Assembly (NCBI GenBank): GCA_023957215.1
Contig: JAMLHH010000013.1
Span: forward strand, 15,111 to 79,110
Source of the DNA: Chitinophagales bacterium
Lineage (GTDB): Bacteria > Bacteroidota > Bacteroidia > Chitinophagales > JADIYW01
Direction: 5' to 3'
DNA length: 64,000 nt
Below the pieces are notes generated by a model. It made no database searches. It was not told the DNA's origin and was given only the letters and a program-made list of their open reading frames with translations. The translations under genes were made by a program, and so were the position numbers. Of the stretch, positions 3,924 through 58,792 are shown in pieces; within the stretch, counting starts at the first letter, position 1; every line of letters starts with the position of its first letter.

Positions 3924-3924
3924 T

Positions 3925-5836: not shown

Positions 5837-5837
5837 T

Positions 5838-15718: not shown

Positions 15719-15720
15719 GA

Positions 15721-18950: not shown

Positions 18951-19105
18951 ATTACCAATATAAGCAAAAGTTTCTTCCCTGACTCTCGTCTAATAAAATT
19001 TGTTTGAGTATCTATCTGTTAAAGATTTTTTCTTTAAGCTTCGTTAAAGATTCTTATGGTTATACAATTCATAAAATCTGTAACTTAGTTGGTAAAAATT
19101 CTACG

Positions 19106-19852
19106 ATGCAACCAATCCTATATCTATTCTTTTTCAGTTTCCTATTTTTTACAGCTTGTAAAAAAGATGATTTGACTTTGAATGAAAACAAGGACAAAGA
19201 ATTATCTGTACAGATAAATTTAACGACAACTTTAAACAATAAAAAATTGGTTTTAGATAGTGCTTATGAATTTGTAGATGATTATCAGTTAAAAGTTCAA
19301 AATCTAAAACTTTATTTTTCCGATATTTCATTGGTTGATAGCAATGGAAATGACGTTTCGGTCAGGTTTAAAGATTATCCTGAAAATGTATTTCTGTACG
19401 ATTTGGGAAAATCGGAGCAAATGAATTTTATTGTACCTCAAGGGAATTATATTGCCATGAAATTTTATCTCGGCTTGACACCTGCATTAAATGATATCAA
19501 TCCCAACACTTTTCCGGCTAATCATCCACTCAGTCGGGAGCAAGACACTTACTGGGACATGCTAAAATACAGATTTTTAATTCTTGAAGCAGCTACTAAT
19601 TATCCTAATCTTGGCGAATTTAATCATTTTATGAGCTATCATCTTGGAGGCGATGAATATTTAAGAAGTATCACCATTCCGATAAAATCTACTGATAATC
19701 AATCCGTTTCCCAAAAAGATTTACAAATCCGATTGGAAAAAGTTTTTGAAGATATAGATTTTACTACTTTTTTCAGCTTTCATAGTGAAGGAGAGTTTCA
19801 GAAAGATGAAGGCATCAAAATGATGAATAACCTTGCACATAGTATAGAATGA
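19106..19852 (+). CDS. MbnP-like lipoprotein (putative copper-binding partner of the downstream di-haem enzyme)
   Basis: The start is taken at ATG 19106 (MQPILYLFFFSFLFFTACKKD, a lipobox). The motifs LKLYFSDISLVDSNG and DTYWDMLKYRFLILEA resemble the MbnP family. There is a 4-nt ATGA overlap with the di-haem peroxidase gene. Confidence 0.5.
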   Translation: MQPILYLFFFSFLFFTACKKDDLTLNENKDKELSVQINLTTTLNNKKLVLDSAYEFVDDYQLKVQNLKLYFSDISLVDSNGNDVSVRFKDYPENVFLYDLGKSEQMNFIVPQGNYIAMKFYLGLTPALNDINPNTFPANHPLSREQDTYWDMLKYRFLILEAATNYPNLGEFNHFMSYHLGGDEYLRSITIPIKSTDNQSVSQKDLQIRLEKVFEDIDFTTFFSFHSEGEFQKDEGIKMMNNLAHSIE

Positions 19853-24736: not shown

Positions 24737-25456
24737 TTAAAATTTTAAGTAAAAATCCTTTGTCAAATTTTTATAAACTTCAGAATATACAGCTTCACGT
24801 TCATAGATATGAATTTTTTCAGACACTACTTCTGCTGGGTTTTTTAAAGAAAATTCTGTCATTATTCTAATCGGCTTTTGCTTTTCAAAGCTTGAAATCT
24901 CACATATTCTGATAGGATGTAAAAGATACTTTTTTGCAATAAGAATCAATCTTTCCATTTGATCGGAGGGAAGTATCAACGCCAAGTGACCATTCGTATT
25001 CAATAGCTCTACGGTTTTCTTTATCAAATCTTCCAAACTTAAATTTATTTGATGCCTGACACTGTCTTTTTCTTTTTGACCTGATAAAAGTACATTTGAA
25101 AAATAGGGAGGATTACTGACGATATAATCAAATCTCGTTTCGGTGGGATAAGCTTTATAATCTATGATGTTAAATTTCAAATGATTAGGCAAGGAGAAAT
25201 TTGTTTGATTGTAGAGTGCATCTCGAATAGAGTCTGTATGGATATCTATACCCTCAATATCTGCTTCCGGGAATCTTTGTGCCAATATCAACGCTATCAG
25301 CCCGGAACCCGTTCCTATATCCAAAATATTTTGCGGAGTGAAATCCTTTACCACCCAAGGAGCAAGCAATACTCCATCAGTACCTACTTTCATGGACGAA
25401 TGTGCATGTCTGACTTCAAACTTTTTGAATCGAAATACAGATTTATCTTTAGCCAT
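24737..25456 (-). CDS. tRNA (adenine-N6)-methyltransferase (TrmN6/YfiC-like)
   Basis: 239 aa with a SAM-binding motif DIGTGSGLIAL and the N6-MTase motif VSNPPYF. Confidence 0.8.
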   Translation of the reverse strand: MAKDKSVFRFKKFEVRHAHSSMKVGTDGVLLAPWVVKDFTPQNILDIGTGSGLIALILAQRFPEADIEGIDIHTDSIRDALYNQTNFSLPNHLKFNIIDYKAYPTETRFDYIVSNPPYFSNVLLSGQKEKDSVRHQINLSLEDLIKKTVELLNTNGHLALILPSDQMERLILIAKKYLLHPIRICEISSFEKQKPIRIMTEFSLKNPAEVVSEKIHIYEREAVYSEVYKNLTKDFYLKF

Positions 25457-26486
25457 TCCGGTGTAAGCTTTCTATAATTTTTCTCGCTGCCAAGAAAGGA
25501 GGGATGGTGTTATTTTTTACTTTTTCCATTTGACTTTTGTAAAGTAAATTGAGTTGTTTGTCACTTTGAATAAATGTCAAAAGTTGGATTTCCAAAGATT
25601 CTTGAAACCAAAGTAAACTTTGTTCATTTCGCTTTTGAAATAAAAAACCATTTTCTAAAGCTTTTGAGAAATATTCTTCTATTGTCGTATGGATTTTTTC
25701 AGTTCCCACCGGTGGTTCCGAAGATGCCGTCAACACTTTCGGATTCCAAAAGCTGTTATTAGAAGGAAACAGATGCAAAGCATGTGCATAATCCCTCGCA
25801 GAAGCTCTTGCCAGACTCTCTCTGACTCCATCTGCTTTGTGTACGATAAGAATATCTGCCATCTCCATGATACCTCTTTTGATACCTTGTAGCTCATCGC
25901 CTGCTCCGGGTAACATCAACAACAGAAATACATCTGTCATCTGATGGACTGCCGTTTCAGATTGACCGACCCCAACTGTTTCTACCAATATTCTGTCAAA
26001 TCCGGCAGCCTCGCACAATAAAATCACTTCCCGGGTTTTGTATGATACACCACCCAACTGTTTGCCGGAAGGGCTGGGACGAACAAAAATATTTTCGCGA
26101 GATTGTATATCTATCATTCGGGTTTTGTCTCCCAAGATACTTCCACCTGACTGTCGGCTGGAAGGGTCTATGGCAAGCACTGCCACTGAAAAACCTTTTT
26201 CATCCAAGAGTTGGGCATACACATTGATAAAAGTACTTTTCCCCACACCCGGAGTACCCGTGACTCCGATTTTCAGGCATTCGTCCCTTCTTTTTTTTAT
26301 AGCCCTATTGAGCAGTTCGTCTGCAATGGCTTGATGTGCAGGAGCTGAACTTTCGATATAAGTGATGGCTTCACCCAAGGCGATTTTATCTTTTTGGATA
26401 ATTTTCAGCCAAAGCTTATCCAAAGAAAACTCTTTTTTCCTTAACCTTTCAATAGCCGCTTGTTTGCTCTTGGAGAGTTTGTCCAT
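25449..26486 (-). CDS. meaB: MeaB/ArgK-type G3E GTPase (methylmalonyl-CoA mutase-associated)
   Basis: 345 aa with the P-loop GVTGTPGVGKSTF, the switch motif VETVGVGQSE, and the NKxD-like motif VHKADG. Confidence 0.85.
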   Translation of the reverse strand: MDKLSKSKQAAIERLRKKEFSLDKLWLKIIQKDKIALGEAITYIESSAPAHQAIADELLNRAIKKRRDECLKIGVTGTPGVGKSTFINVYAQLLDEKGFSVAVLAIDPSSRQSGGSILGDKTRMIDIQSRENIFVRPSPSGKQLGGVSYKTREVILLCEAAGFDRILVETVGVGQSETAVHQMTDVFLLLMLPGAGDELQGIKRGIMEMADILIVHKADGVRESLARASARDYAHALHLFPSNNSFWNPKVLTASSEPPVGTEKIHTTIEEYFSKALENGFLFQKRNEQSLLWFQESLEIQLLTFIQSDKQLNLLYKSQMEKVKNNTIPPFLAARKIIESLHRNG

Positions 26487-32785: not shown

Positions 32786-32800
32786 TAATAATAATAATAA
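32783..32800. repeat. (TAA)6 microsatellite that begins with the MFS stop codon
   Basis: Direct reading gives taataataataataataa followed by ataa. Confidence 0.9.
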
Positions 32801-32852
32801 ATAATCTACCATTGTTGGGAGATGGAGTAGTTATTCTCCAATTACCTCCTAT

Positions 32853-32892
32853 GATTGGTGTTCCATCACCAACCATTATTCTTTTTCTGTAA
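32853..32892 (+). repeat. 40-nt repeat copy A containing the hairpin TTGGTG-ttccat-CACCAA (32855-32872) and a T-rich tail
   Basis: gattggtgttccatcaccaaccattattctttttctgtaa matches 32 of 40 positions with 33244-33283. The hairpin core recurs at 56557-56574 and, inverted, at 33298-33319. Confidence 0.8.
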
Positions 32893-32997
32893 TTTGTTCA
32901 GTAGCGTAACATTGACTGACAGGGCAAGGAATCCTTACTATTACGTGATATACTATTAAAAACTTTATTATCTTTGAAGTAACATAAATTCTTTAAT

Positions 32998-33234
32998 ATG
33001 ACCACTAGTGAAATCAAAAAATATTTAATTCATCGAATAGAGGAGATAGATGATTTAGCACTTCTTGAAAAGCTCAAATCTATTATAGATAATCATGGTG
33101 AAGCGAATATAAAAGCTTTGTCGGAGGAGCAAAAAAATGAAACTCCTATTTCAGAACAGGAAATCGACCAAAGTCTGTTTCTAGGATTTAAAGTTATAGA
33201 TGGAGATCTTTCTAAATGGACGAACGGAAAGTAA
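32998..33234 (+). CDS. Small antitoxin-like protein (Bacteroidota addiction-module component type); orphan
   Basis: 78 aa. MTTSEIKKYLIHRIEEIDDLALLEKLKSIID... and the ...SKW ending resemble the short helical antitoxins that pair with RelE/ParE toxins. A 24-codon stub, MDERKVIFLW... (33216-33290), overlaps its 3' end where a toxin gene would start. Confidence 0.45.
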   Translation: MTTSEIKKYLIHRIEEIDDLALLEKLKSIIDNHGEANIKALSEEQKNETPISEQEIDQSLFLGFKVIDGDLSKWTNGK

Positions 33235-33243
33235 TCTTTCTGT

Positions 33244-33283
33244 GGTTGGTGTTCTGTTATCAGCTATTATTCTTTTTCTATAA
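33244..33283 (+). repeat. 40-nt repeat copy B (degenerate hairpin arm)
   Basis: ggttggtgttctgttatcagctattattctttttctataa is a direct repeat of 32853-32892. It begins 25 nt after the ATG of the toxin stub. Confidence 0.75.
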
Positions 33284-33297
33284 AGTATAACTCATCC

Positions 33298-33344
33298 GGT
33301 CGGTGGCGGAACACCGACCAACGGGGGAACACCTACCAACGGGG
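33298..33344 (+). repeat. GC-rich perfect 8-bp hairpin (GGTCGGTG-gcggaa-CACCGACC) overlapping a 17/18-nt tandem duplication
   Basis: The hairpin spans 33298-33319. The tandem units are AACACCGACCAACGGGGG (33310-33327) and AACACCTACCAACGGGG (33328-33344). The core GGTGNCGGAACACC is the reverse complement of the TTGGTGTTCCGTCACCAA element. Confidence 0.8.
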
Positions 33345-33445
33345 CGAATGTGTCCCATTACCCAATACTCAATAATCCTGGAACACACCCAAAAAAAATT
33401 TCATGTAAATGGATAAAGTAAACGGATATCTTTATCTTAGCTTTT

Positions 33446-36247
33446 ATGCAGGAAGCGGGAAAAGAAAAGTTATATCAACAGCTGAAAGATGCTGTGGTGG
33501 CTATCAAAAAACTGAAGGCGGATTTAAAGGAAGAGCGGGCGAAAAAGAAGGAACCCATTGCGGTCATAGGAATGGCGATGCGGCTGCCGGGAGGGGTGAA
33601 TTCTGCGAAGAAATTTTGGGATTTGCTGACGGAGGGTAGAGATGCGGTCACGGATATTCCGAGTAGTAGATTTGATGCAGCGAAGTATTATGATGCAGAC
33701 TATTCTACGCCCGGGAAAATGGTGGTCAAACAAGGTGGATTTTTAGACCAAATCGATCAGTTTGACGGGTCGTTTTTTGATATTTCTTATGCCGAATTAG
33801 AAAGTATGGATCCACAACAGCGTTTGCTTTTGGAAGTGGCGCATGAGGCGACAGAAAATGCCGGTATTCCTGTAAAATCTTTGTTTGGTAGCAAAACGGG
33901 AGTTTTTATTGGTGTGACAAATATTGATTACCAAAAAAGACATTTCCGTTCGGGTGATTTGACTTTGATCAATCCGTATTCTTATACAGGAGCGACTGTC
34001 TGTTCAAACTCGGGAAGAATCTCATACTTGATGGGTCTAGAAGGTCCGTCTGTGTCGATAGATACTGCATGTTCTTCTTCTTTGGTGACTACTCACCTAG
34101 CGGTACAATCGCTGAGGAATGGTGAGTGCGATATGGCATTTACAGGAGCTGCCAACTTAATTATCGATCCTGAGTTTACTATCTACTTTTCACATTTGAA
34201 TGCTTTGTCCGCAGATTCAAGATGCAAATCTTTTTCTAATGAGGCCAATGGATTTATCCGCTCTGAAGGTGCAGGTATTTTACTTTTAAAAAGGTTGAGT
34301 GATGCGCAAAAAGATGGTGATCATATATTAGCAGTGATTGAGGGAACTGCTGTCAATCAAGACGGTAGAAGCAATGGATTCACTGCACCAAATGTACAAG
34401 CGCAAGAGCGACTTTTGAGAGAGGCACTCAATAATGCCGGATTAAAAGCGGAGCAAGTGGGCTATATCGAGGCACACGGTACAGGTACTAAAATTGGTGA
34501 CCCGATAGAAATGGAAGCTATTTCTTCGGTGTATTCTTCTGCAAAAACTAAAGAAAATCCGCTGATAGTAGGTTCGGTAAAAAGCAATATCGGACATACT
34601 GAAGGTGCTGCAGGTGTAGCTGGTTCTATCAAATCTATTTTGATGTTGCAACATGGTGAAATCCCTAAAAACTTGCACTTTAAAACTCCGAATGAGTTGA
34701 TAGATTGGGAAAATACACCGGTGAAAATTCCTACTGAAAAAATGGAATTGGATACCGAGCATAGACATATCGGTGTGAGTGGTTTTGGTGTGACAGGTAC
34801 AAATGCACATGTGATTTTAGGTGCCGCTCCTGAAAGTGAAACTCCTAAAGATGTTGCACTAAGAACAGATGTTTTTATACTACCACTTTCTGCTAAATCT
34901 GAAGAAGCTTTAAAAGCTTTGGCAAGTTTGTACGCTGACTTTATACAAAACTCTGGTGAGCAGTTGGAAGATATCTGTGCGATGACTGCATTGAGAAGAT
35001 CGAGGTATGATTTGACAGAAGTTTTTGTTGCGAATACGCAAGAAAGTTTGGTGGAAAAACTACAAGATTTTGCTGAACTAAATGATGAAGAGCAAAAAAC
35101 CTTTGACAGTGAAGATCCTATCAAAGTAGTTTTGGTTTGTCCGGGTCAAGGTGCTCAGTGGATAGGTATGGCTCGCCAACTATACGATGCTGAACCAGTT
35201 TTTAGAAAAAGTTTGGACGATAGTGCTACATCTTTTTCAAAATATGTGGATTGGAATCTGATAGATGAATTGAATGGTCATCGCTATGAAGAATTAGATA
35301 TTATCCAACCAGTTTTGGTAGCGATAGAAATAGCCTTAGGTGAACTTTGGAAATCTAAAGGCATTATTCCTGATATTGTGGTGGGGCACAGTATGGGTGA
35401 AGTAGCTGCAGCTTATTTGGCTGAAAATATCACTTTAGACGAGGCGGCAAAAATCATCTGTACCCGTAGTAAGTTGATGAAGCAAACCAGTGGTCAAGGT
35501 GCAATGATGGTTACGGATTTGAATCTACAAGAAGCTGAAAATAAAATCGCAGATAAAACAGATCGTTTGGCTATTGCGGTACAAAACAGTTTGAATTCTA
35601 CAGTGATTTCAGGTCAACCAGAAGCGATAGATAGTTTGCTAGCTGAACTGGATGCAGAAGGAAGATTTTGCAGAAAGATAAAAGTAGATGTTGCTTCTCA
35701 CAGTCCACAAATGGATGTGGTTTTACCTGATTTAAAACAAGCTCTGGAAAATTTGCAGGCTAAAAATTCCAATATTACTTTTTACTCTACTGCCTTAAGT
35801 CAGATTGTAAAAGGTGAAAACTTGGATGCTGATTATTGGGTGAAAAACCTGAGAAATACCGTCAAATTTGGCGAAGTCGTACGTGCGATTTTGGGAAAAG
35901 ATAAGGCGGTATTTATCGAGTTGTCTCCACATCCTGTATTGACAAATGCCATTCAAGAAAATATAGAGTCTGTACAAAAACATGGAATAGCAATTCCTTC
36001 TTTATATAGAGAAAAAGATGAATTAGAAAGTTTTTATAAAGCCTTTGGAAAATATTTTGAATCTGGTTTGGAAGTGGATTGGAAAAATATTTATCCTGAT
36101 ATTCGCCAATTCATCATCTTGCCAAATTATCCATGGCAAAGAGAACGTTTTTGGTTTGATGAACCAGCAAAACTTGAGCAAAGTACAATTGATATTATAC
36201 CTGCCACTGTAGTTGAAAATACTGAAATAGAAACTGGAAAGCTATAG
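33446..36247 (+). CDS. Type I polyketide synthase, KS-AT didomain with an N-terminal coiled-coil (docking-like) segment
   Basis: 933 aa. KS motifs are DTACSSS (Cys209, codon 34070-34072), EAHGTGT and KSNIGHTEGAAG. AT motifs are GQGAQW, GHSMGE, an arginine in CTRS, and VDVASHS. The post-AT linker is YPWQRERFW. Confidence 0.92.
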   Translation: MQEAGKEKLYQQLKDAVVAIKKLKADLKEERAKKKEPIAVIGMAMRLPGGVNSAKKFWDLLTEGRDAVTDIPSSRFDAAKYYDADYSTPGKMVVKQGGFLDQIDQFDGSFFDISYAELESMDPQQRLLLEVAHEATENAGIPVKSLFGSKTGVFIGVTNIDYQKRHFRSGDLTLINPYSYTGATVCSNSGRISYLMGLEGPSVSIDTACSSSLVTTHLAVQSLRNGECDMAFTGAANLIIDPEFTIYFSHLNALSADSRCKSFSNEANGFIRSEGAGILLLKRLSDAQKDGDHILAVIEGTAVNQDGRSNGFTAPNVQAQERLLREALNNAGLKAEQVGYIEAHGTGTKIGDPIEMEAISSVYSSAKTKENPLIVGSVKSNIGHTEGAAGVAGSIKSILMLQHGEIPKNLHFKTPNELIDWENTPVKIPTEKMELDTEHRHIGVSGFGVTGTNAHVILGAAPESETPKDVALRTDVFILPLSAKSEEALKALASLYADFIQNSGEQLEDICAMTALRRSRYDLTEVFVANTQESLVEKLQDFAELNDEEQKTFDSEDPIKVVLVCPGQGAQWIGMARQLYDAEPVFRKSLDDSATSFSKYVDWNLIDELNGHRYEELDIIQPVLVAIEIALGELWKSKGIIPDIVVGHSMGEVAAAYLAENITLDEAAKIICTRSKLMKQTSGQGAMMVTDLNLQEAENKIADKTDRLAIAVQNSLNSTVISGQPEAIDSLLAELDAEGRFCRKIKVDVASHSPQMDVVLPDLKQALENLQAKNSNITFYSTALSQIVKGENLDADYWVKNLRNTVKFGEVVRAILGKDKAVFIELSPHPVLTNAIQENIESVQKHGIAIPSLYREKDELESFYKAFGKYFESGLEVDWKNIYPDIRQFIILPNYPWQRERFWFDEPAKLEQSTIDIIPATVVENTEIETGKL

Positions 36248-36309
36248 AAGAAGTAAATGAAAGCGTTAAAGAAGCTATAAACACTGTTTTCTATTCTCCA
36301 GAATGGGAA

Positions 36310-38358
36310 GTGGCAGAACTTAGTGAAAATACTTTACCAAAATCTATTGTCATTGTAAAAGATAATCATGGTTTGGCTGAACGTTTAGAAGAAAAGCTTA
36401 GAGAAAAAGGCATTGGAGTAGAGATCATTTCTACTACTGAAATGCCGACATCTATTCCTGACACAGTAGTACATTTAGCGAGTACTAATGAAAGAGCGAG
36501 TCTGTACGATGCTGTTTTTAGTATTCAAGATTTGATCAAGACTTTTCAGGAAAGAGGTAAAAGTTCAAGACTTTTTGCAGTGACCAAAAATGCGCAGATA
36601 GTTCATCAAAATGACCAAGAAAATCATATTCCTGGAGCGGTGCTTTGGGGTGTGATGCGTACTTTGCAAAATGAGTTTCCAGAATTGAAACCTGTAACGA
36701 TAGATACAGATGAAAATACAAATGCAGACAAAATCATCCAACTTTTAGCCCAATCTGATAGTTATAAAGAAATGGCTGTAAGAGGTGAAGAGGTTTTCGT
36801 GCCGGTATTAAAACCTATCACTGCACACAATGAAGAAACTCATCAACTTGATACAGATGGTACTTATCTCATCACTGGTGGTACAAGTGGATTGGGATTA
36901 TACTTTGCTGAATGGTTGACTACACAAGGTGTAAAAAGCTTGGCACTAGTCAGTAGAAGTGGAATGAAAGCAGAAACTCAAGCTGTAGTAGATAGACTGA
37001 AAGTTAATGAAGTTAATATAGAAGTTTATGCAGTAGATATCTCTAATGCAAATGCTTTGAACACACTGGTACAAGATATAGAATCCAAACAGTCTGAAAT
37101 CAAGAGTGTAGTACATGCGGCAGGTGTTTTGGATGACGGAGCTTTCTTAAATCTTACTACAGAACAATTTGGCAAAGTGTTGACACCCAAAATCAATGGT
37201 GCATGGAATTTGCATACTTATTTCAAAGATAGAAACCTTTCTAATTTTATACTTTTCTCTTCGGCTGCAACTGTTTTAGGTAGTGCCGCTCAAGCGAATT
37301 ACAATGCCGGAAATATGGTTTTGGATCAGCTCGCACAATTGAGAAATGCACAAGATTTACCTGCCTTATCTATCAATTTCGGCAATATCGGTGAGATAGG
37401 TTTGGCTGCGGCAGATATCAAGCGAGGTGAAAGACTGAAAGAGCAAGGTATGAACACGATGTCACCCGATGAACTTTCTATTTATTTCAAACAGGTATTG
37501 GATTTACAGTTGACACAATGTGTTTTATTAGATATAGATTTTAAAACTTGGAGTGAAAGCAATGAAGGTATTAAAGACAATCACTTTTACCAATATGTTC
37601 TTCAAGTTTCAGAAGAAAAACTTGAATCTAAAACCGATAATTTACCTTATACCAATAAAGCTGGAGCAGTACGATATTACAAGAATGCTATAAAAGGTAT
37701 GATTTCTAAAATCACCAAAATACCAAGTTCTAAAATCAAGGGAGATGCTACTTTTAAGAGCATAGGTATAGATTCACTCATGGCAGTGCAACTGAAAAAT
37801 GCTTTGCAAAAAGAAAGTGGTTTGGACTTGATGGTTGCTAGTATTTGGACTTATCCAACCGTAGATAAATACACTGATTTTATCGTACAAGAATTAAAAA
37901 TTGAAGATAAAACTTCATCGGCTGTGAGGATAGAAGATGAGGTGCGCAATTGGACTTATACCAATAAAAATGCTGCTGTAAAAGATTTTAAAAACATCTT
38001 GAAAGAACATATTTCAGCTATTACCAAGATACCAAGTTTCAAAATCAAAGAAGATGCTACATTCAAAAGTATGGGTATAGATTCATTGATGGCAGTACAA
38101 CTGAAAAATAAGTTCCAATCAGAGTTTGGGATTAATATAGCCGTTTCTAGTATTTGGACGTATTCGACTGTTGAAAAGTATGCTCAATTTATTGCAGACG
38201 AGTTGAAAATAAATGATTTGGGTAATATACATGCAGAAAGTAATTCTACCCAACCTGCAAATACCGCCATACAACCGGAACTTCCTTTTGATACTATTGA
38301 AAAACAAGTAGATGAACTGTCATTGGATGATTTGTTGGATGCATTGGATGAGGATTAG
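36310..38358 (+). CDS. Type I polyketide synthase, KR-ACP-ACP with an acidic C-terminal tail
   Basis: 682 aa. KR features are the Rossmann motif ITGGTSGLG, the LDD motif (AAGVLDDGAF), and catalytic K/S/Y/N (KINGAWNL, FSSAATVLGSAAQANYNAGN). Two ACPs carry GIDSLMAVQLKN (Ser codons 37774 and 38083). The frame is open from 36226, and the only start candidate is GTG 36310. Confidence 0.9.
   Translation: MAELSENTLPKSIVIVKDNHGLAERLEEKLREKGIGVEIISTTEMPTSIPDTVVHLASTNERASLYDAVFSIQDLIKTFQERGKSSRLFAVTKNAQIVHQNDQENHIPGAVLWGVMRTLQNEFPELKPVTIDTDENTNADKIIQLLAQSDSYKEMAVRGEEVFVPVLKPITAHNEETHQLDTDGTYLITGGTSGLGLYFAEWLTTQGVKSLALVSRSGMKAETQAVVDRLKVNEVNIEVYAVDISNANALNTLVQDIESKQSEIKSVVHAAGVLDDGAFLNLTTEQFGKVLTPKINGAWNLHTYFKDRNLSNFILFSSAATVLGSAAQANYNAGNMVLDQLAQLRNAQDLPALSINFGNIGEIGLAAADIKRGERLKEQGMNTMSPDELSIYFKQVLDLQLTQCVLLDIDFKTWSESNEGIKDNHFYQYVLQVSEEKLESKTDNLPYTNKAGAVRYYKNAIKGMISKITKIPSSKIKGDATFKSIGIDSLMAVQLKNALQKESGLDLMVASIWTYPTVDKYTDFIVQELKIEDKTSSAVRIEDEVRNWTYTNKNAAVKDFKNILKEHISAITKIPSFKIKEDATFKSMGIDSLMAVQLKNKFQSEFGINIAVSSIWTYSTVEKYAQFIADELKINDLGNIHAESNSTQPANTAIQPELPFDTIEKQVDELSLDDLLDALDED
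37648..38265 (+). repeat. Tandem 309-nt (103-codon) duplication encoding linker plus ACP
   Basis: The unit YTNKAGAVRYYKNAIKG...GIDSLMAVQLKNAL...QELKIEDK is repeated as YTNKNAAVKDFKNILKE...GIDSLMAVQLKNKF...ADELKINDL. The two Ser codons are exactly 309 nt apart. Confidence 0.85.
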
Positions 38359-38490: not shown

Positions 38491-40272
38491 TTACCTCCCT
38501 TTTCTCAAATCAGGTAATCCAATAGAGTTGGGAGATTGTATGCTATTGGGTGAAGGTGGGTTAGCATTCATATCTTGTATTTTATTGGAACTTGATTTAG
38601 CAGTAGATTTTATTTCTTCCAAAGGATTTATCAAGTCTGTCAACTTAGAAGATTTTGTAAAGTCCACTTGAATTTTGTGTTTGTCATCCCAATTTGCACG
38701 AGAAGAATAAACTTGTGATTTGAAGACTCTTTCGGGTTTCCGTGAATCCCAAAAAGATGCACCGTTCCACGTGCCACTTTTATTCAAATCTTCTATCACT
38801 TCGATAAAGTAATCGTTGGGAAATTGTTCCTTGATTTGATATTGTAATGAATCTGTATTCTCTAAAATCAGTTCATCCCACAAATAATTATCTTTTGTAA
38901 AAACTCTGAGTACATAAGAAATATCTTTTGATGGGAATTTGATGTCTAAAATCAAATTAGCTAATTCTTCTTTTTTCGTACTTGCAATATTGTATGAGAT
39001 AGAATCAGAAAATTTGTTACCATAAAATTGAATTGCCGAATCTAAAAATAAAATCTTCGTTTCTTCATTTTCACTCAAATTAATATATGTGGAAAATTTC
39101 CAATTTGATTGTTGGATATTTTTTTGATTCATTTTTACGGTGTCATTTTTACTTATCAGATATATTTTATCCGGATGAATATATTTGATTGGAAAATTTG
39201 TATTGAATGTAAAAAGTCCATTTTTATTCGCCTTGAGAATCGAATTTTTTAAGTTCATTTGAGCTGTGGGTAAGAATAGAGATTTCTCATGCGACCCAGA
39301 AGCGGGTTTGACAGTGATACTATCTATCAATTCAGCATGATTATACAATATGTATGTGTTTGATAGTGTATCGTTTATAATAAAAAAATTATAAATCCTA
39401 TTACTTGTTTTTTGTGAAAACGGAATGAGTTCATCAGATTGAAAATTTTTAATAAAAACACTGTCTTTTCGCGGATTGAGCTCTTTATTAAACTCAACCG
39501 TTAAAATTCCATCTTTAAGCTTGTTATTATAGTCTTTGATTTTGATTTTGGAATCTTCAGGCAAGTAAATGGAAATTTCAAGATTGGATACATTGGAATC
39601 CAAAGCAATTAAAGAGTCGTATTTACCAATCCACTCCGTCGGTAAATCATATTTATAATTATTGTTTAAATCATTTAAAACAAAAAGTCTAAATGTATCT
39701 GTTGGCAAATATTGCATATTGAAACTTCCATCTTTTTCCAGCTTGTATATATATAATGGCTTCTCTGTTGTTATAATAGAATCTTCTGTATTTTTGTATA
39801 GCTGTACAAAAGTATTTTCAGGAATAGAAGATTGATCGGTTGTCGTTACTTTTCCGCTTATTTTTAAACTATCCAGATAGTCTCCGGTCGAAAAAACGTA
39901 CTGTAAGTTATCAATAACATTCCCTTCGTTGTTATCTTTTACAGATTGACCAAAGAAAATACTGTAAGTAGTATTAGAGTCCAGTTCGCTTTTAAAATGG
40001 ATGTTAAGGTAGTTTTTTCTTGCAGTAATAATTGGATCTTCCTTTAAAGGAGGTGAAATAATCAAGTTTTGTTTGATATTTACCACTGTCACCCATTCAT
40101 CAAATCGGATAGAAATACTCTTCGATTTAAAATTAGTGGTAAGTTGAGCCGGTGTAAAATCTTCTACTTTGGGTGGTGTAGCGTCTTGTGCCCCCCCTAA
40201 TGGAGAACCGGGAGTAGCACACGATACCCACAGAAACAAAATTCCTATCAGTAAGATTAGTCTATTCATCAA
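38491..40272 (-). CDS. Ig-like-domain lipoprotein, function unknown
   Basis: 593 aa with the lipobox LFLWVSCATPG. The N-terminal segment (PPKVEDFTPAQLTTNFKSKSISIRFDEWV) resembles bacterial Ig-like (SbsA-type) domains. There is a 4-nt overlap with the mnmG stop. Confidence 0.55.
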   Translation of the reverse strand: MMNRLILLIGILFLWVSCATPGSPLGGAQDATPPKVEDFTPAQLTTNFKSKSISIRFDEWVTVVNIKQNLIISPPLKEDPIITARKNYLNIHFKSELDSNTTYSIFFGQSVKDNNEGNVIDNLQYVFSTGDYLDSLKISGKVTTTDQSSIPENTFVQLYKNTEDSIITTEKPLYIYKLEKDGSFNMQYLPTDTFRLFVLNDLNNNYKYDLPTEWIGKYDSLIALDSNVSNLEISIYLPEDSKIKIKDYNNKLKDGILTVEFNKELNPRKDSVFIKNFQSDELIPFSQKTSNRIYNFFIINDTLSNTYILYNHAELIDSITVKPASGSHEKSLFLPTAQMNLKNSILKANKNGLFTFNTNFPIKYIHPDKIYLISKNDTVKMNQKNIQQSNWKFSTYINLSENEETKILFLDSAIQFYGNKFSDSISYNIASTKKEELANLILDIKFPSKDISYVLRVFTKDNYLWDELILENTDSLQYQIKEQFPNDYFIEVIEDLNKSGTWNGASFWDSRKPERVFKSQVYSSRANWDDKHKIQVDFTKSSKLTDLINPLEEIKSTAKSSSNKIQDMNANPPSPNSIQSPNSIGLPDLRKGR

Positions 40273-42134
40273 CGACCGATAAACACCATTAACACAGAGA
40301 TATCTGCCGGAGAGACACCGCTTATTCTACTTGCTTGTCCAAGGGTAGTCGGCTTTAATTTATTTAATTTTTCTCTCGCCTCAATTGACAATGAAGGAAT
40401 GGATCTATAATCTGTTTTTGATGGTAGTTTTATATTTTCAAGATTATGCATTTTAACTGCCATTTCCTTTTCTCTTTCAATATAACCGCCATATTTAATA
40501 TTTATTTCGGCTTGTTCGGTAAATTCATGCTCATAATCTGCAACTAAACTTTCAACCTTCGGCACATTTTCTATCAATTCGGCAATTGAAATATGAGGTC
40601 TTGAAATCAGTTTATCTAATTTTATCTTTTGATTTAACTCACTTGACCCAATTTTATTTAAGTAGAAATTGACATCATTTGGATAAACCCCCGTATTATT
40701 TAAAAGTTCTATAATTCTATTTGTCTGCGAAATCTTCTCCTTTACCCTATCATATCTATCCTGATCGGCTAAACCGAGCTGGTAAGACTTTTCAGTCAAT
40801 CTTATATCTGCATTATCCTGTCTCAATAAAATTCTAAACTCCGCTCTGGATGTAAACATTCTATATGGTTCTTCTGTACCCTTATTAATGAGGTCATCAA
40901 TTAGTACACCGATATAGGCTTCGTCCCGTCTTAAAATCAAAGGTGCATTGTCTTGTATATACTGATGTGCATTGATTCCTGCAATGATACCTTGCGCTCC
41001 TGCTTCTTCATAACCGGTAGTACCGTTTATTTGCCCTGCAAAAAACAGCCCTTTGATTAGTTTGGTTTCTAAAGATGTATTGAGCTGTGTAGGCGGAAAA
41101 TAATCATATTCTATTGCATAACCCGGTCTAAACATTTTAGCATTTTCAAACCCGGGTATTTCTCGCATGGCTTTATATTGTACATCTTCAGGCAATGAGG
41201 TTGAAAATCCGTTGATATACACTTCAACAGTATTCCATCCTTCCGGCTCTACAAATATTTGATGCCTTTCCTTATCGGCAAAACGATTGATTTTATCTTC
41301 TACAGACGGGCAGTATCTTGGACCGACTCCTTTAATCCTACCCGTAAACATTGGCGACCTGTCAAATCCTGTTTTCAAGATTTCATGTACTTCGGTATTG
41401 GTATAGGTGATGTGACAAGGTCTTTGCTTGTCAGGCTTTTCAATATTTTTATACGAAAATCCGACAATTTCATCATCTCCCGGTTGTACTTCCATTTTGG
41501 CATAATCCAAAGTTCGCCCATCCACTCTTGGTGGCGTTCCCGTTTTCATTCTCCCACTCTGAAACCCTAAAGATTCTAATTGTGCAGTCAATCCTGTCGC
41601 AGCTCTTTCACCGGCCCTCCCACCTCCAAATTTCTTTTCGCCTATATGAATAATCCCATTTAAGAAAGTTCCATTTGTAAGCACAACCGCTTTGGCCTTA
41701 AACTCAATTCCCATCTGGGTTTTAACACCTACACATTTGCCTTTTTCTACTATAATCTCAGAAACCATTTCCTGCCAAAAATCAACATTGGGCGTTTGTT
41801 CTAACATCCTCCTCCATTCGTTAGAGAACATCATTCTATCGCTTTGCACTCTCGGACTCCACATGGCAGGACCTTTAGACTTATTGAGCATTCTAAACTG
41901 TATCATCGTCTTATCCGACACAATTGCAGAATAACCACCCAACGCATCTATCTCCCTTAAGATTTGACCTTTCGCCACTCCTCCCATAGCAGGATTGCAA
42001 CTCATCTTTGCAATTACTTCCATATTCATAGTGACCAATAAAACCTTTGAACCCATATTTGCAGCAGCCGCGGCAGCTTCGCTCCCTGCATGCCCTGCTC
42101 CTACTACTATTACATCATAACTTGGATATATCAT
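40269..42134 (-). CDS. mnmG: tRNA uridine-5-carboxymethylaminomethyl modification enzyme MnmG (GidA)
   Basis: 621 aa with the FAD motif DVIVVGAGHAGSEAA and conserved GPRYCPSVEDK. Confidence 0.95.
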   Translation of the reverse strand: MIYPSYDVIVVGAGHAGSEAAAAAANMGSKVLLVTMNMEVIAKMSCNPAMGGVAKGQILREIDALGGYSAIVSDKTMIQFRMLNKSKGPAMWSPRVQSDRMMFSNEWRRMLEQTPNVDFWQEMVSEIIVEKGKCVGVKTQMGIEFKAKAVVLTNGTFLNGIIHIGEKKFGGGRAGERAATGLTAQLESLGFQSGRMKTGTPPRVDGRTLDYAKMEVQPGDDEIVGFSYKNIEKPDKQRPCHITYTNTEVHEILKTGFDRSPMFTGRIKGVGPRYCPSVEDKINRFADKERHQIFVEPEGWNTVEVYINGFSTSLPEDVQYKAMREIPGFENAKMFRPGYAIEYDYFPPTQLNTSLETKLIKGLFFAGQINGTTGYEEAGAQGIIAGINAHQYIQDNAPLILRRDEAYIGVLIDDLINKGTEEPYRMFTSRAEFRILLRQDNADIRLTEKSYQLGLADQDRYDRVKEKISQTNRIIELLNNTGVYPNDVNFYLNKIGSSELNQKIKLDKLISRPHISIAELIENVPKVESLVADYEHEFTEQAEINIKYGGYIEREKEMAVKMHNLENIKLPSKTDYRSIPSLSIEAREKLNKLKPTTLGQASRISGVSPADISVLMVFIGR

Positions 42135-42201: not shown

Positions 42202-43248
42202 TTAAAATACAGGACAGTAAATTTTGTGCCCCTTTTTGTCTGAACAAGCAACTGTATATGTTAAGCCAACTTCAAAACCGTTAAAGCCGCTAAATGTTTT
42301 CTTAGAATCATTAATTGTATTGTCGGTAGCTACAAGAAGTGTTAAAGCATTGTATCTAACTCCGGCAACAATATTAGCAGTGTACATAGAAAATTCACCT
42401 ACGGGTGATTTGTACATTCGTAAATATGGACCCGCAAAGAGAGCCAATTGGTTGTCTTTTTCATGCGTAATATCATAACCAAATTCAACACCCGTATAAA
42501 TCTCAGATGCTTTCATTTGCTTATCAAACATCACTAAAGGTTTTAAACTGACACTCCCTATTCCTATATCTAAGCCTCCGTGCACATTGTACCGAATGCC
42601 ATCTGAGAAACTCAAGTAATCATTGTCTTTCTCAGGCAATAAATGATTAATAGATGTGCCAATAAATCCTTTAAAATTATCATTTGCTTTAAAAGAATAT
42701 AGCAACCCGATATTTGCATCAAACTTTGAAGATGATTCTATATCAAACAGTTCACCACTATTAATATTTGGATTGTAATTAAAACCATCAAACTGATTTC
42801 CAAATTGTAAATCAGCATAGCCATATTTCCTACTTTGATATACAGCACTCAACCCTGCTGATAACGTATGTCTTTTTTCTTCGTCCAAAGTAATTCGATA
42901 AGCAACCATTACAGAAGCAACATTATCAGCAATAGAATTATACCCTGCTTTATTATTATAAAAATAAGCACCTACGCCGACAGAACTTTTATCAGAATAT
43001 GCACTATTAATAGGAATATTAAAATCTACTGCACCAAATGCTGTACGCATACCGTCTTTGCCATAAGCTTGTCTATATCTGTCGGCATAAGATCCATTGA
43101 GTCTGACACACCCCTCAAAGAATCCCGTTAAAGCAGGATTATAATAAAGAGAGTTGTAAACATGCTGGGAATAATGCAAGTCTTGTGCTTTAATTGGAGC
43201 AAAACAAACTCCGCACAAAACCAATATAGTTGTCAATAGATATTTCAT
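42202..43248 (-). CDS. PorP/SprF-family T9SS membrane protein
   Basis: 348 aa with a signal peptide and the family-typical N-terminus QDLHYSQHVYNSLYYNPALTG. It has a beta-barrel-like pattern and an ATGA overlap with the upstream type B cargo gene. Confidence 0.8.
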   Translation of the reverse strand: MKYLLTTILVLCGVCFAPIKAQDLHYSQHVYNSLYYNPALTGFFEGCVRLNGSYADRYRQAYGKDGMRTAFGAVDFNIPINSAYSDKSSVGVGAYFYNNKAGYNSIADNVASVMVAYRITLDEEKRHTLSAGLSAVYQSRKYGYADLQFGNQFDGFNYNPNINSGELFDIESSSKFDANIGLLYSFKANDNFKGFIGTSINHLLPEKDNDYLSFSDGIRYNVHGGLDIGIGSVSLKPLVMFDKQMKASEIYTGVEFGYDITHEKDNQLALFAGPYLRMYKSPVGEFSMYTANIVAGVRYNALTLLVATDNTINDSKKTFSGFNGFEVGLTYTVACSDKKGHKIYCPVF

Positions 43249-44333
43249 CTTATAAGTGTTAGCTGACCTTTTTTACTGTCATTGGTTTTATCAATATAAG
43301 TAACTTCTGCATGATAGAAATATAAGCCTTCGGGGTATGCTTTACCCGCAACACGTCCGTCCCAACCTTCATTCAAAGCATCTCCTTTATAAACGAGAAA
43401 TCCATTTTTATCATAAATTTTTATAGTGGCAGCTTCTACTCCGGCACCAAAGATTTTAAAGACATCATTTCTACCATCATTATTTGGGGAAAAAGCATTG
43501 GGAATAAAAAGTGAAAAATCCCCTTCAGTTTCGATAAGGACATTATCGGTAGATACACATCCATAAGTCAAATCGTGGACAGTTACTGAGATAGCGGTTG
43601 ATTTATACAGACGGTAAGAGGTAGTTTCACAAGTAGGACATTCAGTATCTCTATCAGGCAACCACTGAAAAGAATAATTACCACTGCCTTTTGTAATAGT
43701 TGTCTCAAGTTCAACTTTATCACCTAAATTGACTAAAAGAGCTGAAGGCAAGATTTTTACATTAAAAACTTCTTCAACCGGTAAAGTGATGGTATCACTC
43801 GATGTACATTCATTTTGGTCTTTTATCTTCAAACTAAAAAATCCGTCGTTGACATTTCTCAATGTATCAGCCATTAATTTAGAATCTCCGTTCCACTCGT
43901 ATAGATAAGGTGCTGTCCCTCCGGATATTTCGGCAAAGACCTTAGCATCATTACCACAAATAGTCGGGCTATATTTTAAATTGATAGACAAAGCATCCGG
44001 TTGCTTTACTTCTACACCGGATTGTGTGGTGATACAACCTTTAGTATCTTTTATACTTACCGTATATAGACCGGCGCTTAAATTCTTAAATACACTGTCA
44101 TTAGAATATGTAGAACCATCTAAGGAATAAGTATAAGGGGTATTACCCGAAAGATGTGTCGTACGAATAGTTATACTTCCTTCATTTCCACCATTACAAT
44201 TGATATTGGCAATATCCAATAGATAATCTGTCGCATCACATGAAAAAGCCGCATTTATATTGAATGTAAATAATATCAATGTGATATATATATATAATAA
44301 TTTCAAACTAAATATTTTTAAAATTTTGGACAA
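43245..44333 (-). CDS. SprB-repeat protein with a T9SS type B (gliding-motility-associated) C-terminal sorting domain
   Basis: 362 aa with two Cys-framed repeats (NCNGGNEGSITI...GNTPYTYSLDG; ICGNDAKVFAEISGGTAPYLYEWNG). The C-terminus is IPNAFSPNNDGRNDVFKIFG...YFYHAEV. Confidence 0.8.
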   Translation of the reverse strand: MSKILKIFSLKLLYIYITLILFTFNINAAFSCDATDYLLDIANINCNGGNEGSITIRTTHLSGNTPYTYSLDGSTYSNDSVFKNLSAGLYTVSIKDTKGCITTQSGVEVKQPDALSINLKYSPTICGNDAKVFAEISGGTAPYLYEWNGDSKLMADTLRNVNDGFFSLKIKDQNECTSSDTITLPVEEVFNVKILPSALLVNLGDKVELETTITKGSGNYSFQWLPDRDTECPTCETTSYRLYKSTAISVTVHDLTYGCVSTDNVLIETEGDFSLFIPNAFSPNNDGRNDVFKIFGAGVEAATIKIYDKNGFLVYKGDALNEGWDGRVAGKAYPEGLYFYHAEVTYIDKTNDSKKGQLTLIR

Positions 44334-45358
44334 TGCATAATTGAGTATCGTTTTTCATTATCTCTCGATGGAGATTGATAAATTATTGAAGTTTCAAAAG
44401 CGCCAAAACCACTATTGGCTTGTTTTAAATCAGAAATAGTTCTATCATAGCTAAAAGTAAATTGAATACTTTTGATCTGCATTCCAGCCGAAGCAATGAC
44501 AGCACCTGTTCCCTCATACCAGACTCCTACAAAAGCCGAAGTTTCGTAAGGATGTGAACTTCCTGATAGATTATATGCTAAAGTACTTCCTGCTACCCAA
44601 TCACTCAAATTACTTTGTCGAAAGTAAATCGCATTGGGATTTATCATAATTTTATCGTTCAGATTGATTACTACTCCACCATGACCATTCAATTTCATGG
44701 CTCTTTCTGCATCCGAGTCAAAAAAATTATCTTTTGGCTTCATCAGGTTAAACATAGAGACTCCGGCATAAGCACTCAAAACTTTGGAAAAGTTTGAAGA
44801 CCAAAAGACTCCCGTATTCATATTCATTCTGATAAAAGACTCTTTGTCAAAACTTTCTAAATTAGGGAGAGATAAATCAAAGCCATTGATAGATTGATTA
44901 AACTGGGATTCAAAATAGAGCTGTGAAACATCTAACTTACGAGATTTCAAACCAAATTGAAAACCGACACTCAGATAATGATTGTGATCATAACCAAAAC
45001 TCTTATGATAAGCCAAAGATGCCATGATATCAGTGGTCTTCAAAGCTCCGGCCGCTTGCCTATCTGATGAAGCAATAAGTCCCAGGCCCAAAATATCTCC
45101 CGAATATTTATTGGGTGTTAGACCAAAATCAGCCGAAACGCTTAAAGTATTATAGGGCACCGGAGTGGAAACAGGTTTTGATTGTACCCTATAATTAGCA
45201 ACCAAGCGATACAAGCCCGGTAATTTACCGGTCAAGGCAGGATTCAGATTCAGTGGTGCATTATAAAACTGGTTGAATTTATAATCTTGAGCATGTACAC
45301 ACAAGAAAGATAAATTCAATATTATAAGAATAGTATGTTTTTTTAGTTTTGAAAACAT
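44318..45358 (-). CDS. PorP/SprF-family T9SS membrane protein (second copy)
   Basis: 346 aa with the N-terminus QDYKFNQFYNAPLNLNPALTG. It overlaps the cargo gene by 16 nt. Confidence 0.8.
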   Translation of the reverse strand: MFSKLKKHTILIILNLSFLCVHAQDYKFNQFYNAPLNLNPALTGKLPGLYRLVANYRVQSKPVSTPVPYNTLSVSADFGLTPNKYSGDILGLGLIASSDRQAAGALKTTDIMASLAYHKSFGYDHNHYLSVGFQFGLKSRKLDVSQLYFESQFNQSINGFDLSLPNLESFDKESFIRMNMNTGVFWSSNFSKVLSAYAGVSMFNLMKPKDNFFDSDAERAMKLNGHGGVVINLNDKIMINPNAIYFRQSNLSDWVAGSTLAYNLSGSSHPYETSAFVGVWYEGTGAVIASAGMQIKSIQFTFSYDRTISDLKQANSGFGAFETSIIYQSPSRDNEKRYSIMHCPKF

Positions 45359-57785: not shown

Positions 57786-58792
57786 ATGGAAACAGTTTTA
57801 GATTTAGAGACCATTCAGAAAGTAGGATATGTAGATGAACCTATCGATCCGACTATTGATATATTTGAAGAAATAGAAAAACTCAAAAAAGAGAAAAATG
57901 CTATCTTGTTGGCACACTATTATCAAGATGCCGATATCCAAGATGCAGCAGATTTTATCGGTGATAGTTTAGCTTTGGCTCAAATGGCCAAGAAGACTGA
58001 CGCTGACATGATTGTTTTCGCAGGTGTGCATTTCATGGCAGAAACGGCTAAAATTTTGTGTCCAGAGAAAAAAGTAGTTTTACCGGACTTGAAAGCTGGT
58101 TGTTCACTTGCTGATTCCTGTCCACCGGCTGCGTTTCAGGCTTTTAAAGACAAGTATCCTGACCATGTAGTCGTTTCCTATATCAATTGTAGTGCGGAAA
58201 TCAAAGCTTTGAGCGATTATATCTGTACTTCCAGTAGTGCAGAACATATTCTCAATGCCATTCCGAAAGACAAAGGTATCATCTTTGCACCGGAATTCAT
58301 TAGAAACTAGGTGGATATCTCAAAAGAAACTCAATAGGGATATGATTTTGTGGAATGGTTCGTATCGTCTACGAAATTTTTCTTTTGGATAAAATCAAAA
58401 TCCATGTTGAAAATCCGGGTGCTTTGTTGATTGCCCATCCAGAATGTGAAGAACAAGTACTCAATGAAGCAGATTATATCGGTTCTACCAGTGGCTTGTT
58501 AAAATATACAATTAACAGTCCGGCAGATACTTTTATCGTAGCTACAGAAACAGGTATTTTACATAAGATGATGCTCAATAGTCCACACAAGACATTTATT
58601 CCTGCACCACCTAACAATGCTTGCGCTTGTAACAATTGTCCGTATATGAAACTCAATTCTATTGAGAAAATTTACAACTGTATGAAATACGAACAACCAG
58701 AAATCATTTTGGACGAGGAATTGAGACTTAGAGCAAAATTACCTATTGACAGAATGCTTGAAATTTCTGCAAAGGCAGGATTGAAATTGTAG
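57786..58792 (+). pseudogene. nadA: Quinolinate synthase NadA, disrupted by three small deletions
   Basis: The N-terminal ORF (57786-58310) and C-terminal ORF (58355-58792) both read as NadA ([30 protein letters not shown] / LIAHPECE, ACACNNCPYMKLNS). The homologous path FAPE..RN|LGGYLK|KKLNRDMILWNGS|IVYEIF needs frame changes 0 to 2 to 1 to 2 near 58306, 58321-58325 and 58361. The Cys of the conserved W-x-G-x-C-x-V-H motif is missing. Confidence 0.75.

Follow-up and report, generated by a model that had tools for sequence, protein, structure and literature searches.

The 64-kb window analyzed here (the whole stretch of 64,000 nucleotides from contig JAMLHH010000013.1 of a Chitinophagales bacterium, ~35% G+C) carries at positions 33446-38358 a type I polyketide synthase (PKS) locus, which appears as two consecutive open reading frames (ORFs). 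By Pfam, ORF1 consists of a ketosynthase (KS) and an acyltransferase (AT) with associated linkers (ketoacyl-synt, 5e-87; Ketoacyl-synt_C; KAsynt_C_assoc; CurL-like_PKS_C; Acyl_transf_1, 2e-84), and ORF2 contains a ketoreductase (KR, 6.5e-59) and two PP-binding stretches (5.7e-28), here named acyl carrier proteins ACP1 and ACP2, with a tail of ~55 residues without a family match after ACP2. Judged from its reading frames and its orthologues, the locus is best described as one gene of ~1637 codons, encoding a single PKS module and broken once by a frameshift. Taken as a whole, it probably represents a frame-broken cis-AT extension module of a solitary clade, descended from the middle protein of a three-protein assembly line.

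Gene layout and the frame break

The ORF2 frame is open from 36226, directly after a TGA (36223-36225), and overlaps the end of ORF1, which terminates at a TAG (36245-36247); this overlap indicates that both ORFs belong to one gene, each in its own frame. From 36226 up to the GTG at 36310 the ORF2 frame contains no ATG, GTG or TTG, and its translation upstream of the GTG reads ..EEVNESVKEAINTVFYSPEWEV. A conceptual fusion of both frames (1637 aa) was used as query and for profile scoring. It retrieved ~30 single-polypeptide orthologues of 1500-1650 aa with 45-63% identity and 91-100% query coverage, all of which are continuous across the junction in the alignment. The junction is likewise read through in P0289, the closest relative (82% identity over KS-AT). 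The linker that follows ..YQWQKERFWFD in the orthologues varies in length and sequence and ends in a conserved (I/F)(Y/F)E..WE element, with which FYSPEWEV of the window aligns. Furthermore, the fusion aligns in a single stretch to positions 1-1513 of the generic NCBIfam model NF045894.

An AlphaFold2 model covering 36247-37575, built with 25 orthologues (pLDDT 90.2, pTM 0.90), shows FYSPEWEV as the first beta-strand (E15-22), with the GTG codon of ORF2 encoding the last residue of this predicted strand. The KR model superposes on the KR didomains of modular PKSs, among them AmphB and DEBS KR1, with a TM of ~0.85. Since the strand lies upstream of the sole ORF2 start, the frame change must be located in 36226-36247; it is a net -1 change inside an A-rich stretch of the non-conserved AT-KR linker.

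In an earlier note on this DNA, KS-AT and KR-ACP-ACP were presented as a two-protein layout, a description superseded by the frame break and by the single polypeptide of all full-length orthologues. A truly split module, in which KS-AT and KR-ACP-ACP form non-covalent subunits (the latter initiated at GTG 36310) or are joined by programmed -1 frameshifting, is very improbable. Both ORFs are indeed long and intact, the break falls in a flexible linker, and an A_AAG site (GGA AAG, 36236-36241) lies inside the overlap; however, a GTG-initiated ORF2 would lose the FYSPEWEV strand, an integral part of the KR structural subdomain, docking elements are absent at the break, and no orthologue, the closest included, is split at this site. 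Programmed frameshifting was also considered on its own and rejected, as no X_XXY_YYZ heptamer and no predicted downstream RNA structure (z = -0.96) were detected. In annotation practice, an apparent 'split module' can be a frame break.

The fused sequence reads, in order, as an N-terminal docking coiled coil, KS, AT, pseudo-KR/KR, ACP, ACP and a C-terminal docking-like acidic helix (Table 1). Across 16 family members compared, the catalytic residues and both termini are invariant or almost so. The KS triad (C209, H344, H384), the VASH motif of the AT, the catalytic residues of the KR and residues D1443, S1444 and L1445 of ACP1 are all invariant; ACP2 is missing from one-ACP orthologues of ~1505-1546 aa. 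The characteristic elements of a cis-AT extension module are present, namely the KS triad, an in-cis AT with the GHSxG Ser, the Arg and the KS-AT and post-AT linkers, and the Ser of the ACP DSL motif. The module domains, distributed over two frames in this assembly, share one polypeptide in all full-length orthologues, and a co-linear multi-module line within one cluster occurs in more distant relatives only. Placed by coordinate, every motif that the earlier note had quoted as intact in KS, AT, KR and ACP was recovered. Its call of a B-type KR agrees with the LDD motif and the K/S/Y/N residues, which are present and invariant in the family, and its count of two ACPs with the two PP-binding stretches, each containing GIDSL.

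The same note had called the termini docking-like, which is borne out at the N-terminus, where the closest match of the first 50 residues is the CurL N-terminus (4mz0 residues 5-53, E 1e-5), followed by the N-terminal segments of Lsd14 and DEBS module 5. Among the 16 members, M1, K6, Q12, A16, A19, I20, K22, L23, K24 and E30 are invariant in this segment. At the other end, the motif of the solitary orthologues is IEKEVDQMSLDDLLKALDD (consensus IEK(E/Q)VD(Q/E)(M/L)SLDDLL.ALD; V1622, S1626, L1627 and L1630 invariant), preceded by a fully variable linker. The C-terminus has no sequence match in the PDB; its ..LS.(D/E)(D/E)L(L/M)..L motif is one that we take to resemble the short acidic C-terminal docking helices of Cur-type systems.

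Table 1 Features of the PKS gene, its downstream flank and the broken nadA gene (positions within the window).
Feature	Position	Strand	Details and evidence
ORF1	33446..36247	+	933 aa, ATG start
ORF2	36310..38358	+	682 aa, GTG start
N-terminal coiled-coil, docking-like segment, residues 1-35	33446..33550	+	homology to CurL, Lsd14 and DEBS module 5 N-termini
N-terminal KLYQQLKDAVVAIKKLKADLKEERAKKK	33467-33550	+	motif search
KS domain, Cys-His-His triad	33551..34681	+	Pfam PF00109, PF02801
KS motifs	DTACSSS 34061-34081; EAHGTGT 34469-34489; NIGHTEGAAG 34586-34615	+	motif search
KS-AT linker	34688..35074	+	Pfam KAsynt_C_assoc, CurL-like_PKS_C, RhiE-like_linker
AT domain, predicted methylmalonyl-type	35132..36073	+	Pfam PF00698, 2e-84
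AT motifs	ELDIIQP 35291; GHSMGE 35384-35401; Arg in CTRSKLM 35459-35479; VASH 35690-35701	+	
Post-AT linker motif YPWQRERFW	36128..36154	+	invariant or almost so among orthologues
Frame-break zone, variable AT-KR linker	36226..36247	+	sequence read and orthologue alignment
FYSPEWEV, first beta-strand of KR structural subdomain	36289..36312	+	orthologue alignment and AlphaFold2 model
Rest of KR structural (pseudo-KR) subdomain	36313..36858	+	PDB alignments to Lsd14/DEBS KR regions; structure model
Catalytic KR	36859..37389	+	Pfam PF08659, 6.5e-59
KR motifs	GGTSGLG 36877-36897; LDD 37129-37137 (HAAGVLDDG); K 37186-37209 (PKINGAWN); S 37255-37269 (FSSAA); Y/N 37294-37314 (ANYNAGN)	+	
ACP1, GIDSL 37765-37779	37690..37890	+	first PP-binding stretch; boundaries approximate
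ACP2, GIDSL 38074-38088	37999..38193	+	PP-binding, residues 564-628 of ORF2
C-terminal LSLDDLLDALDED	38317-38355	+	motif search
Acidic C-terminal motif IEKQVDELSLDDLLDALDED and stop codon	38296..38358	+	conserved in family
Big_5 lipoprotein-like gene and mnmG	38491..42134	-	Pfam
Quinolinate synthase nadA, broken	57786-58792	+	two ORFs

Predicted chemistry and comparison with known synthases

Compared with sequences in the PDB, the AT scores 250 bits with 6iyr and 239 and 232 bits with the methylmalonyl-type ATs of DEBS (AT5 and AT3), whereas the malonyl-type AT of CurL is much less similar (148 bits). The methylmalonyl-AT fingerprints VASH and ELDIIQP are present, but GHSMGE is found in place of GHSQGE. 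VASH, which the earlier note had regarded as a non-canonical specificity motif, has been reported in place of YASH in methylmalonyl-specific ATs, EpoAT7 among them, and it also occurs in ethyl- and methoxymalonyl ATs (PMC7327777, PMC8058987); this, together with the far higher scores against methylmalonyl ATs, does not support the earlier view. The AT is predicted to be of the methylmalonyl type. A gene for a MeaB-type GTPase, a methylmalonyl-CoA mutase chaperone, lies on the minus strand 7 kb upstream of the PKS (25449-26486). It is probably unrelated to the PKS by operon, and it fits an organism that handles methylmalonyl-CoA, which suggests that this precursor is available.

An LDD motif without a Pro at Tyr+2 marks, by the usual stereochemical rule, a B1-type KR that yields a D-3-hydroxy product. 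The KR of the window has LDD and lacks Pro at this position, and by that rule is predicted to be B1-type. In the reaction sequence that we envisage, the AT would load a methylmalonyl, or possibly another 2-substituted malonyl, unit onto either ACP, and the KS would be primed with an acyl thioester, most likely a saturated fatty-type chain, to which it is probably adapted because the ancestral upstream partner (see below) was fully reducing. The KS would then perform one decarboxylative condensation and the B-type KR would reduce the intermediate, so that a (2-methyl-)3R-hydroxyacyl-ACP is the predicted product of one cycle. Priming, phosphopantetheinylation and release would depend on unlinked functions.

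The window module shares its domain order, catalytic motifs, linkers and N-terminal coiled coil with DEBS modules 1, 2, 5 and 6 and with Lsd14. Its best PDB sequence matches are DEBS module 5 KS-AT (5e-213), DEBS module 3 and Lsd14, and its AT is predicted to have the methylmalonyl preference of the DEBS ATs. In contrast to DEBS and Lsd14, to which it is ~40% identical, the module is encoded alone in a Bacteroidota host, carries tandem ACPs and is followed by neither a thioesterase nor a downstream module. A likeness in outline exists to PpsA and PpsB, the KS-AT-KR-ACP modules with which the mycobacterial phthiocerol synthase lengthens a long fatty acyl chain into a beta-hydroxyacyl chain; like them, the window module would be a KR-only module acting on a fatty-type chain, as deduced from the fully reducing partner seen in the relative L020. 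The PpsA AT is among the PDB matches of the window AT (7akc, 191 bits), and one distant homologue was named after PpsA by the Joint Genome Institute (JGI). PpsA possesses an N-terminal ACP loaded by a dedicated fatty acyl-AMP ligase (FAAL) and belongs to a contiguous five-protein line; the window module has no loading ACP. There is no orthology between the two, and mycobacterial NCBIfam models match far below their cut-offs. In mycobacterial Pks12, the protein's own N- and C-terminal linkers are proposed to dock head-to-tail, with the chain being handed from molecule to molecule (PMC2443190). The window family resembles Pks12 in being solitary with both termini conserved, self-docking being purely hypothetical here, and differs from it in that Pks12 is bimodular and fully reducing.

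Several described types were considered and rejected. For a polyunsaturated fatty acid (PUFA) synthase of the PfaA or HglE type, the fusion scores 370 bits with TIGR02813 (cut-off 1010), its ACPs follow the KR and a dehydratase (DH) is lacking. For the Pks13 type, 775 bits were obtained with NF040607 (cut-off 2100), with the KS part alone matching, and neither an N-terminal ACP nor a thioesterase is present. An olefin synthase or CurM-type terminal module does not fit either, as no sulfotransferase or thioesterase follows ACP2. The solitary state fits the iterative monomodular class, and the KS groups with modular cis-AT KSs; the characterized iterative types named in PMC10308959, the polycyclic tetramate macrolactam (PTM) and enediyne synthases, carry a DH, which is absent from the window module.

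Neighbourhood, relatives and probable descent

Pfam scans of 50 ORFs (48 non-overlapping ORFs of at least 100 aa, one overlapping and one small ORF) detected no other domain of a PKS or non-ribosomal peptide synthetase (NRPS), DH or enoylreductase (ER), thioesterase, AMP ligase or phosphopantetheinyl transferase (PPTase) in the 64 kb. Within the window, partner genes are absent over 33 kb upstream and 25 kb downstream, which extends the earlier note's statement that none lie nearby. The upstream flank is a TetR-TolC-EmrA-EmrB efflux operon and the downstream flank is the Big_5-mnmG pair. Searches of the window for Rfam families and tRNAs were negative.

All orthologues derive from metagenomes or metagenome-assembled genomes (MAGs), and those that are named are listed as 'type I polyketide synthase' of Chitinophagales, Sphingobacteriales or Bacteroidota. 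Literature searches for the module architecture in Bacteroidota found no description of the family, and every NCBIfam match is below its cut-off. The architecture of NF045894, 'PKS_plus_SDR' (cut-off 1740 bits), matches end to end, with scores of 1385 for the fusion, 1374 for P0271 and 1343 for P0294. These sub-threshold scores and the generic names of the MAG relatives agree with the earlier note in leaving the module outside any described pathway. Among close relatives (58-82% identity) the module stands alone in seven different neighbourhoods (L010, L012, L013/14, L015, L016/17, L018/19/24 and L026), in none of which a PKS, ligase, thioesterase or PPTase was found within 10 kb, so that the solitary state noted for the window is a conserved one. 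In these contexts the PKS is placed between LpxK and XusB, LpxK and a pyrophosphatase, MTHFR and RluD, MTHFR and MgtC, methyltransferases and TPR-AraC, or MurF-Alr and a beta-helix protein, or it follows VanZ at a contig end that cuts it.

More distant relatives (46-54% identity) are embedded in clusters (L020/21, L022/23 and L011). The order in L020/21 is Wza, Wzz-like, PKS1, PKS2, PKS3, NMO-type reductase, AMP ligase, MFS, Big_5 and mnmG, where PKS1 is KS-AT-DH-ER-KR-ACP, PKS2 has the architecture of the window module and PKS3 is KS-AT-ACP. PKS2 of L020 is 50% identical to the window module over the full length and has the same N- and C-terminal motifs and the same Big_5-mnmG neighbours (Big_5 proteins 31% identical over 527 aa); the genes that flank it there, PKS1, PKS3, the AMP ligase, the NMO-type reductase, Wza and the Wzz-like protein, have no counterpart in the window, where no remnants of other L020 cluster genes were detected. 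In L022/23 a PKS termed PKSa is paired with a KS-AT-ACP protein, and L011 adds a thioesterase, an ACPS-type PPTase, GtrA and MBOAT. With slight variation, the C-terminal motif of the solitary modules recurs in the cluster-embedded PKS2 and PKSa, and a related form ends PKS1 of L020; the N-terminal segment is shared with PKS2, and PKS2 and PKS3 have N-termini of a single type (..L.K[AS][LV].[AT]I[KR]KL[KE]..).

In a neighbour-joining tree of the KS-AT region, the window gene and P0289 are sisters within a clade in which all members with an examined neighbourhood are solitary, and the cluster-embedded PKS2 and PKSa fall outside this clade. Most simply, the solitary gene is read as a descendant of the middle member of a three-protein line (fully reducing module, KR module, KS-AT-ACP protein), with the window marking the old chromosomal position of that cluster. 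On such a descent the docking-like ends are inherited, and their conservation in the solitary clade implies that they still do something. The earlier note had stated that orthology to a characterized system with the missing genes in conserved synteny would overturn its picture of a stand-alone module; the missing genes do occur in conserved synteny in L020, but the L020 system is itself uncharacterized.

In two independent cluster-type relatives, L020 (1-3351) and L011 (3800-7322, 15444-19436), genes for a Wza-type polysaccharide export protein and for a ~359-aa protein that matches Wzz weakly precede the PKS genes, which hints that the ancestral product may have been attached to, or exported with, a surface glycan. 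The KS-AT-ACP proteins PKS3 (L020 14984-18217) and PKSb (L022 14537-17800) have in common a conserved C-terminal extension of ~60 aa without a Pfam match (..DWH.(I/V)KE(S/T)DG..L(R/K)WFKK.DK..), which may be a release or docking element.

Recovery of the family depended on the query. A contig scan with exact 8-mer patterns from ORF1 gave generic PKSs only, at ~40% identity, and when ORF1 was compared with protein representatives, the 150 best by summed score were all multi-module giants with 35-44% identity. A homologue search with a 212-aa pseudo-KR segment found nothing, and the proteins listed for a 474-aa AT segment were all shorter than ~830 aa; such searches appear to prefer proteins close to the query in length. 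Full-length orthologues were recovered only with the 1637-aa fusion, and a metagenome contig scan with the family alignment yielded one true locus, a duplicate of L018. A homology search with a short query can miss full-length orthologues.

Upstream of the PKS, a 660-nt gap (32786-33445) contains a 78-aa ORF (32998..33234) without a Pfam match. On either side of this ORF lie 44-nt direct repeats (32849-32892 and 33240-33283, 80% identical) together with imperfect inverted repeats. The locus of the closest relative (L012) is similar in nucleotide sequence only from 33419 onwards, 27 nt ahead of the PKS start, which places a synteny breakpoint or a small insertion in this gap. The Bat (aerotolerance, MoxR-VWA-BatD) operon lies in L012 (1-3957) ~8 kb upstream of the PKS and in the same orientation, and in the window (1-7723, minus strand) 30 kb upstream and inverted, BatD being 71% and the TPR-SH3 protein 66% identical. 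The window also lacks the Ank, DUF2271, PepSY-flavodoxin reductase, ApbE and VanZ genes of L012, and the whole pattern would fit a large inversion with one end just ahead of the PKS. Elsewhere in the window, genes for an MbnP-like protein and a di-haem cytochrome c peroxidase of the MauG/CCP family, in this order, overlap by 4 nt (19004-20952, plus strand) and resemble the MbnP-MbnH-like pair of copper-acquisition loci; a CCP_MauG gene is also found just upstream of the PKS pair in L022. Finally, two groups related to the type IX secretion system (T9SS) are encoded on the minus strand, a 1658-aa protein with a C25-peptidase domain and its DUF5723 neighbour (10742-16818) and, directly after mnmG, a PorP/SprF - SprB-repeat/CHU_C - PorP/SprF triplet (42202-45358). 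Such T9SS and gliding genes (PorP/SprF, SprB repeats, C25 peptidase) place the window in the Bacteroidota.

Condition of the gene and possible roles of its termini

Assembly error and a real, recent mutation are about equally probable as causes of the frame break. In favour of an error, none of the 703 codons after the break is a stop, compared with 58 and 68 stops in the other two frames and with ~2-3 to be expected had this stretch drifted neutrally to that extent; every catalytic residue is intact, and other assemblies of the family have scattered frame splits elsewhere in the gene (L010, L011 and the pair P0394/P0392). In favour of a mutation, replacements unique to the window at otherwise invariant columns amount to 13/139 after the break compared to 15/410 before (odds ratio 2.7, p = 0.013), and most other long branches show no such excess after the junction. 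The pseudo-KR divergence between the window and P0289 is inside the scatter of other pairs and did not confirm the decay signal. In the orthologue P0287 (Logan assembly), unique replacements number 11/137 after the junction and 4/399 before it, which may reflect a local sequence error or another decaying copy.

Also on the side of a mutation, the window contains a second broken gene, nadA, represented by two ORFs at 57786..58310 (profile positions 1-142) and 58355..58792 (profile positions 178-295). At least three frame changes, an in-frame TAG and a His-to-Tyr replacement are all concentrated within ~90 nt (~58285-58370), where a cluster-binding Cys codon is disrupted and the conserved His of the C-x-V-H-E region has become Tyr (..IVYEIF). 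The gene has the look of a genuine pseudogene or of a poorly assembled patch, and the pattern of damage does not look like a homopolymer error.

Several points weigh against reading the locus as a frame-broken extension module of a solitary, once cluster-borne lineage. The AT specificity is a prediction from motifs and similarity, and GHSMGE is neither the typical GHSQGE nor GHS[VIL]GE. No family member has a known product, starter or release enzyme, and the mechanism is deduced from domains and motifs. The search for partners covered linked genes, in the window and in the 10-kb contexts, and unlinked partners may exist elsewhere in the genome. With a genuine frameshift, this copy may yield no working enzyme; the replacement excess after the junction is a modest signal, unconfirmed by two further checks.

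This last concern leads to the possibility of a dead gene, in which the frameshift is real, KS-AT at most is produced, and the locus is all that is left of a three-PKS cluster after its decay in place beside Big_5-mnmG. The full cluster at the same Big_5-mnmG position in L020, the lack of any trace of PKS1, PKS3, NMO, AMP ligase, Wza or Wzz-like gene in the window, the apparently genuine decay of nadA and the excess of window-specific replacements downstream of the break would all agree with it. However, intact solitary orthologues in seven other contexts indicate that alone does not mean dead, the post-break codons are open with every catalytic residue intact, the window is otherwise dense with full-length genes, and frame errors are common in other assemblies of this PKS family. 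On balance, we consider decay a real but less probable explanation than the main reading of a frame-broken module from a solitary clade.

What a maintained solitary module does with its docking-like ends admits further alternatives. They could bind PKS1- and PKS3-type proteins, or else a loading and a releasing enzyme, whose genes lie at other sites in the genome as parts of a dispersed line. In the solitary clade both termini are conserved like catalytic motifs while the adjoining linkers vary, and in L020 and L022 these termini are found where one protein of a multi-protein line meets the next; yet partners are adjacent in every cluster-type relative, and nothing suitable was found within 10 kb in the seven solitary contexts or in the window, which makes a dispersed line unlikely. 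Less likely still is that the C-terminal helix docks head-to-tail onto the N-terminal coiled coil, giving a Pks12-like 'modularly iterative' synthase of a poly(2-methyl-3-hydroxy) chain. Such iteration through N- and C-terminal linkers has a precedent in Pks12 (PMC2443190), monomodular PKSs are generally held to be iterative (PMC10308959), and both termini are kept in the solitary clade. The C-terminus of PKS2 in L020, which presumably binds PKS3, could plausibly also bind a PKS2-type N-terminus, given the N-terminal type that PKS2 and PKS3 share, and two rounds would produce a 3,5-dihydroxyacyl thioester whose self-release by lactonization would explain the missing thioesterase. However, the N-terminal coiled coil may simply stabilize the KS dimer, and beta-hydroxy chains need not be accepted by a KS that is adapted to saturated ones. 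It is improbable, though conceivable, that the clade has turned its ancestral docking termini on itself to make a short poly(2-methyl-3-hydroxy) lipid chain with a thioesterase-free exit.

The module itself is a canonical cis-AT module, and its interest lies in the conserved solitary clade with retained docking ends. Genome mining often meets 'orphan' single PKS modules, which are mostly left without explanation, and a survey of activated sludge reported 670 gene clusters with only one PKS module (PMC9765116). The relatives of the window gene form an evolutionary series from a three-protein line through a two-protein line to a solitary module with both docking ends retained, which in one case still occupies the same chromosomal position; solitary modules of 45-63% identity occur across many uncultured Bacteroidota. 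They pose the testable question of which role docking domains take on after the loss of their partners, be it self-docking iteration, contact with unlinked partners, or nothing. If self-docking were true, the chain would leave, for example, by delta-lactonization after two rounds or by hand-over to a membrane acyltransferase, and the clade would represent a conserved envelope-lipid function in uncultured Chitinophagales.

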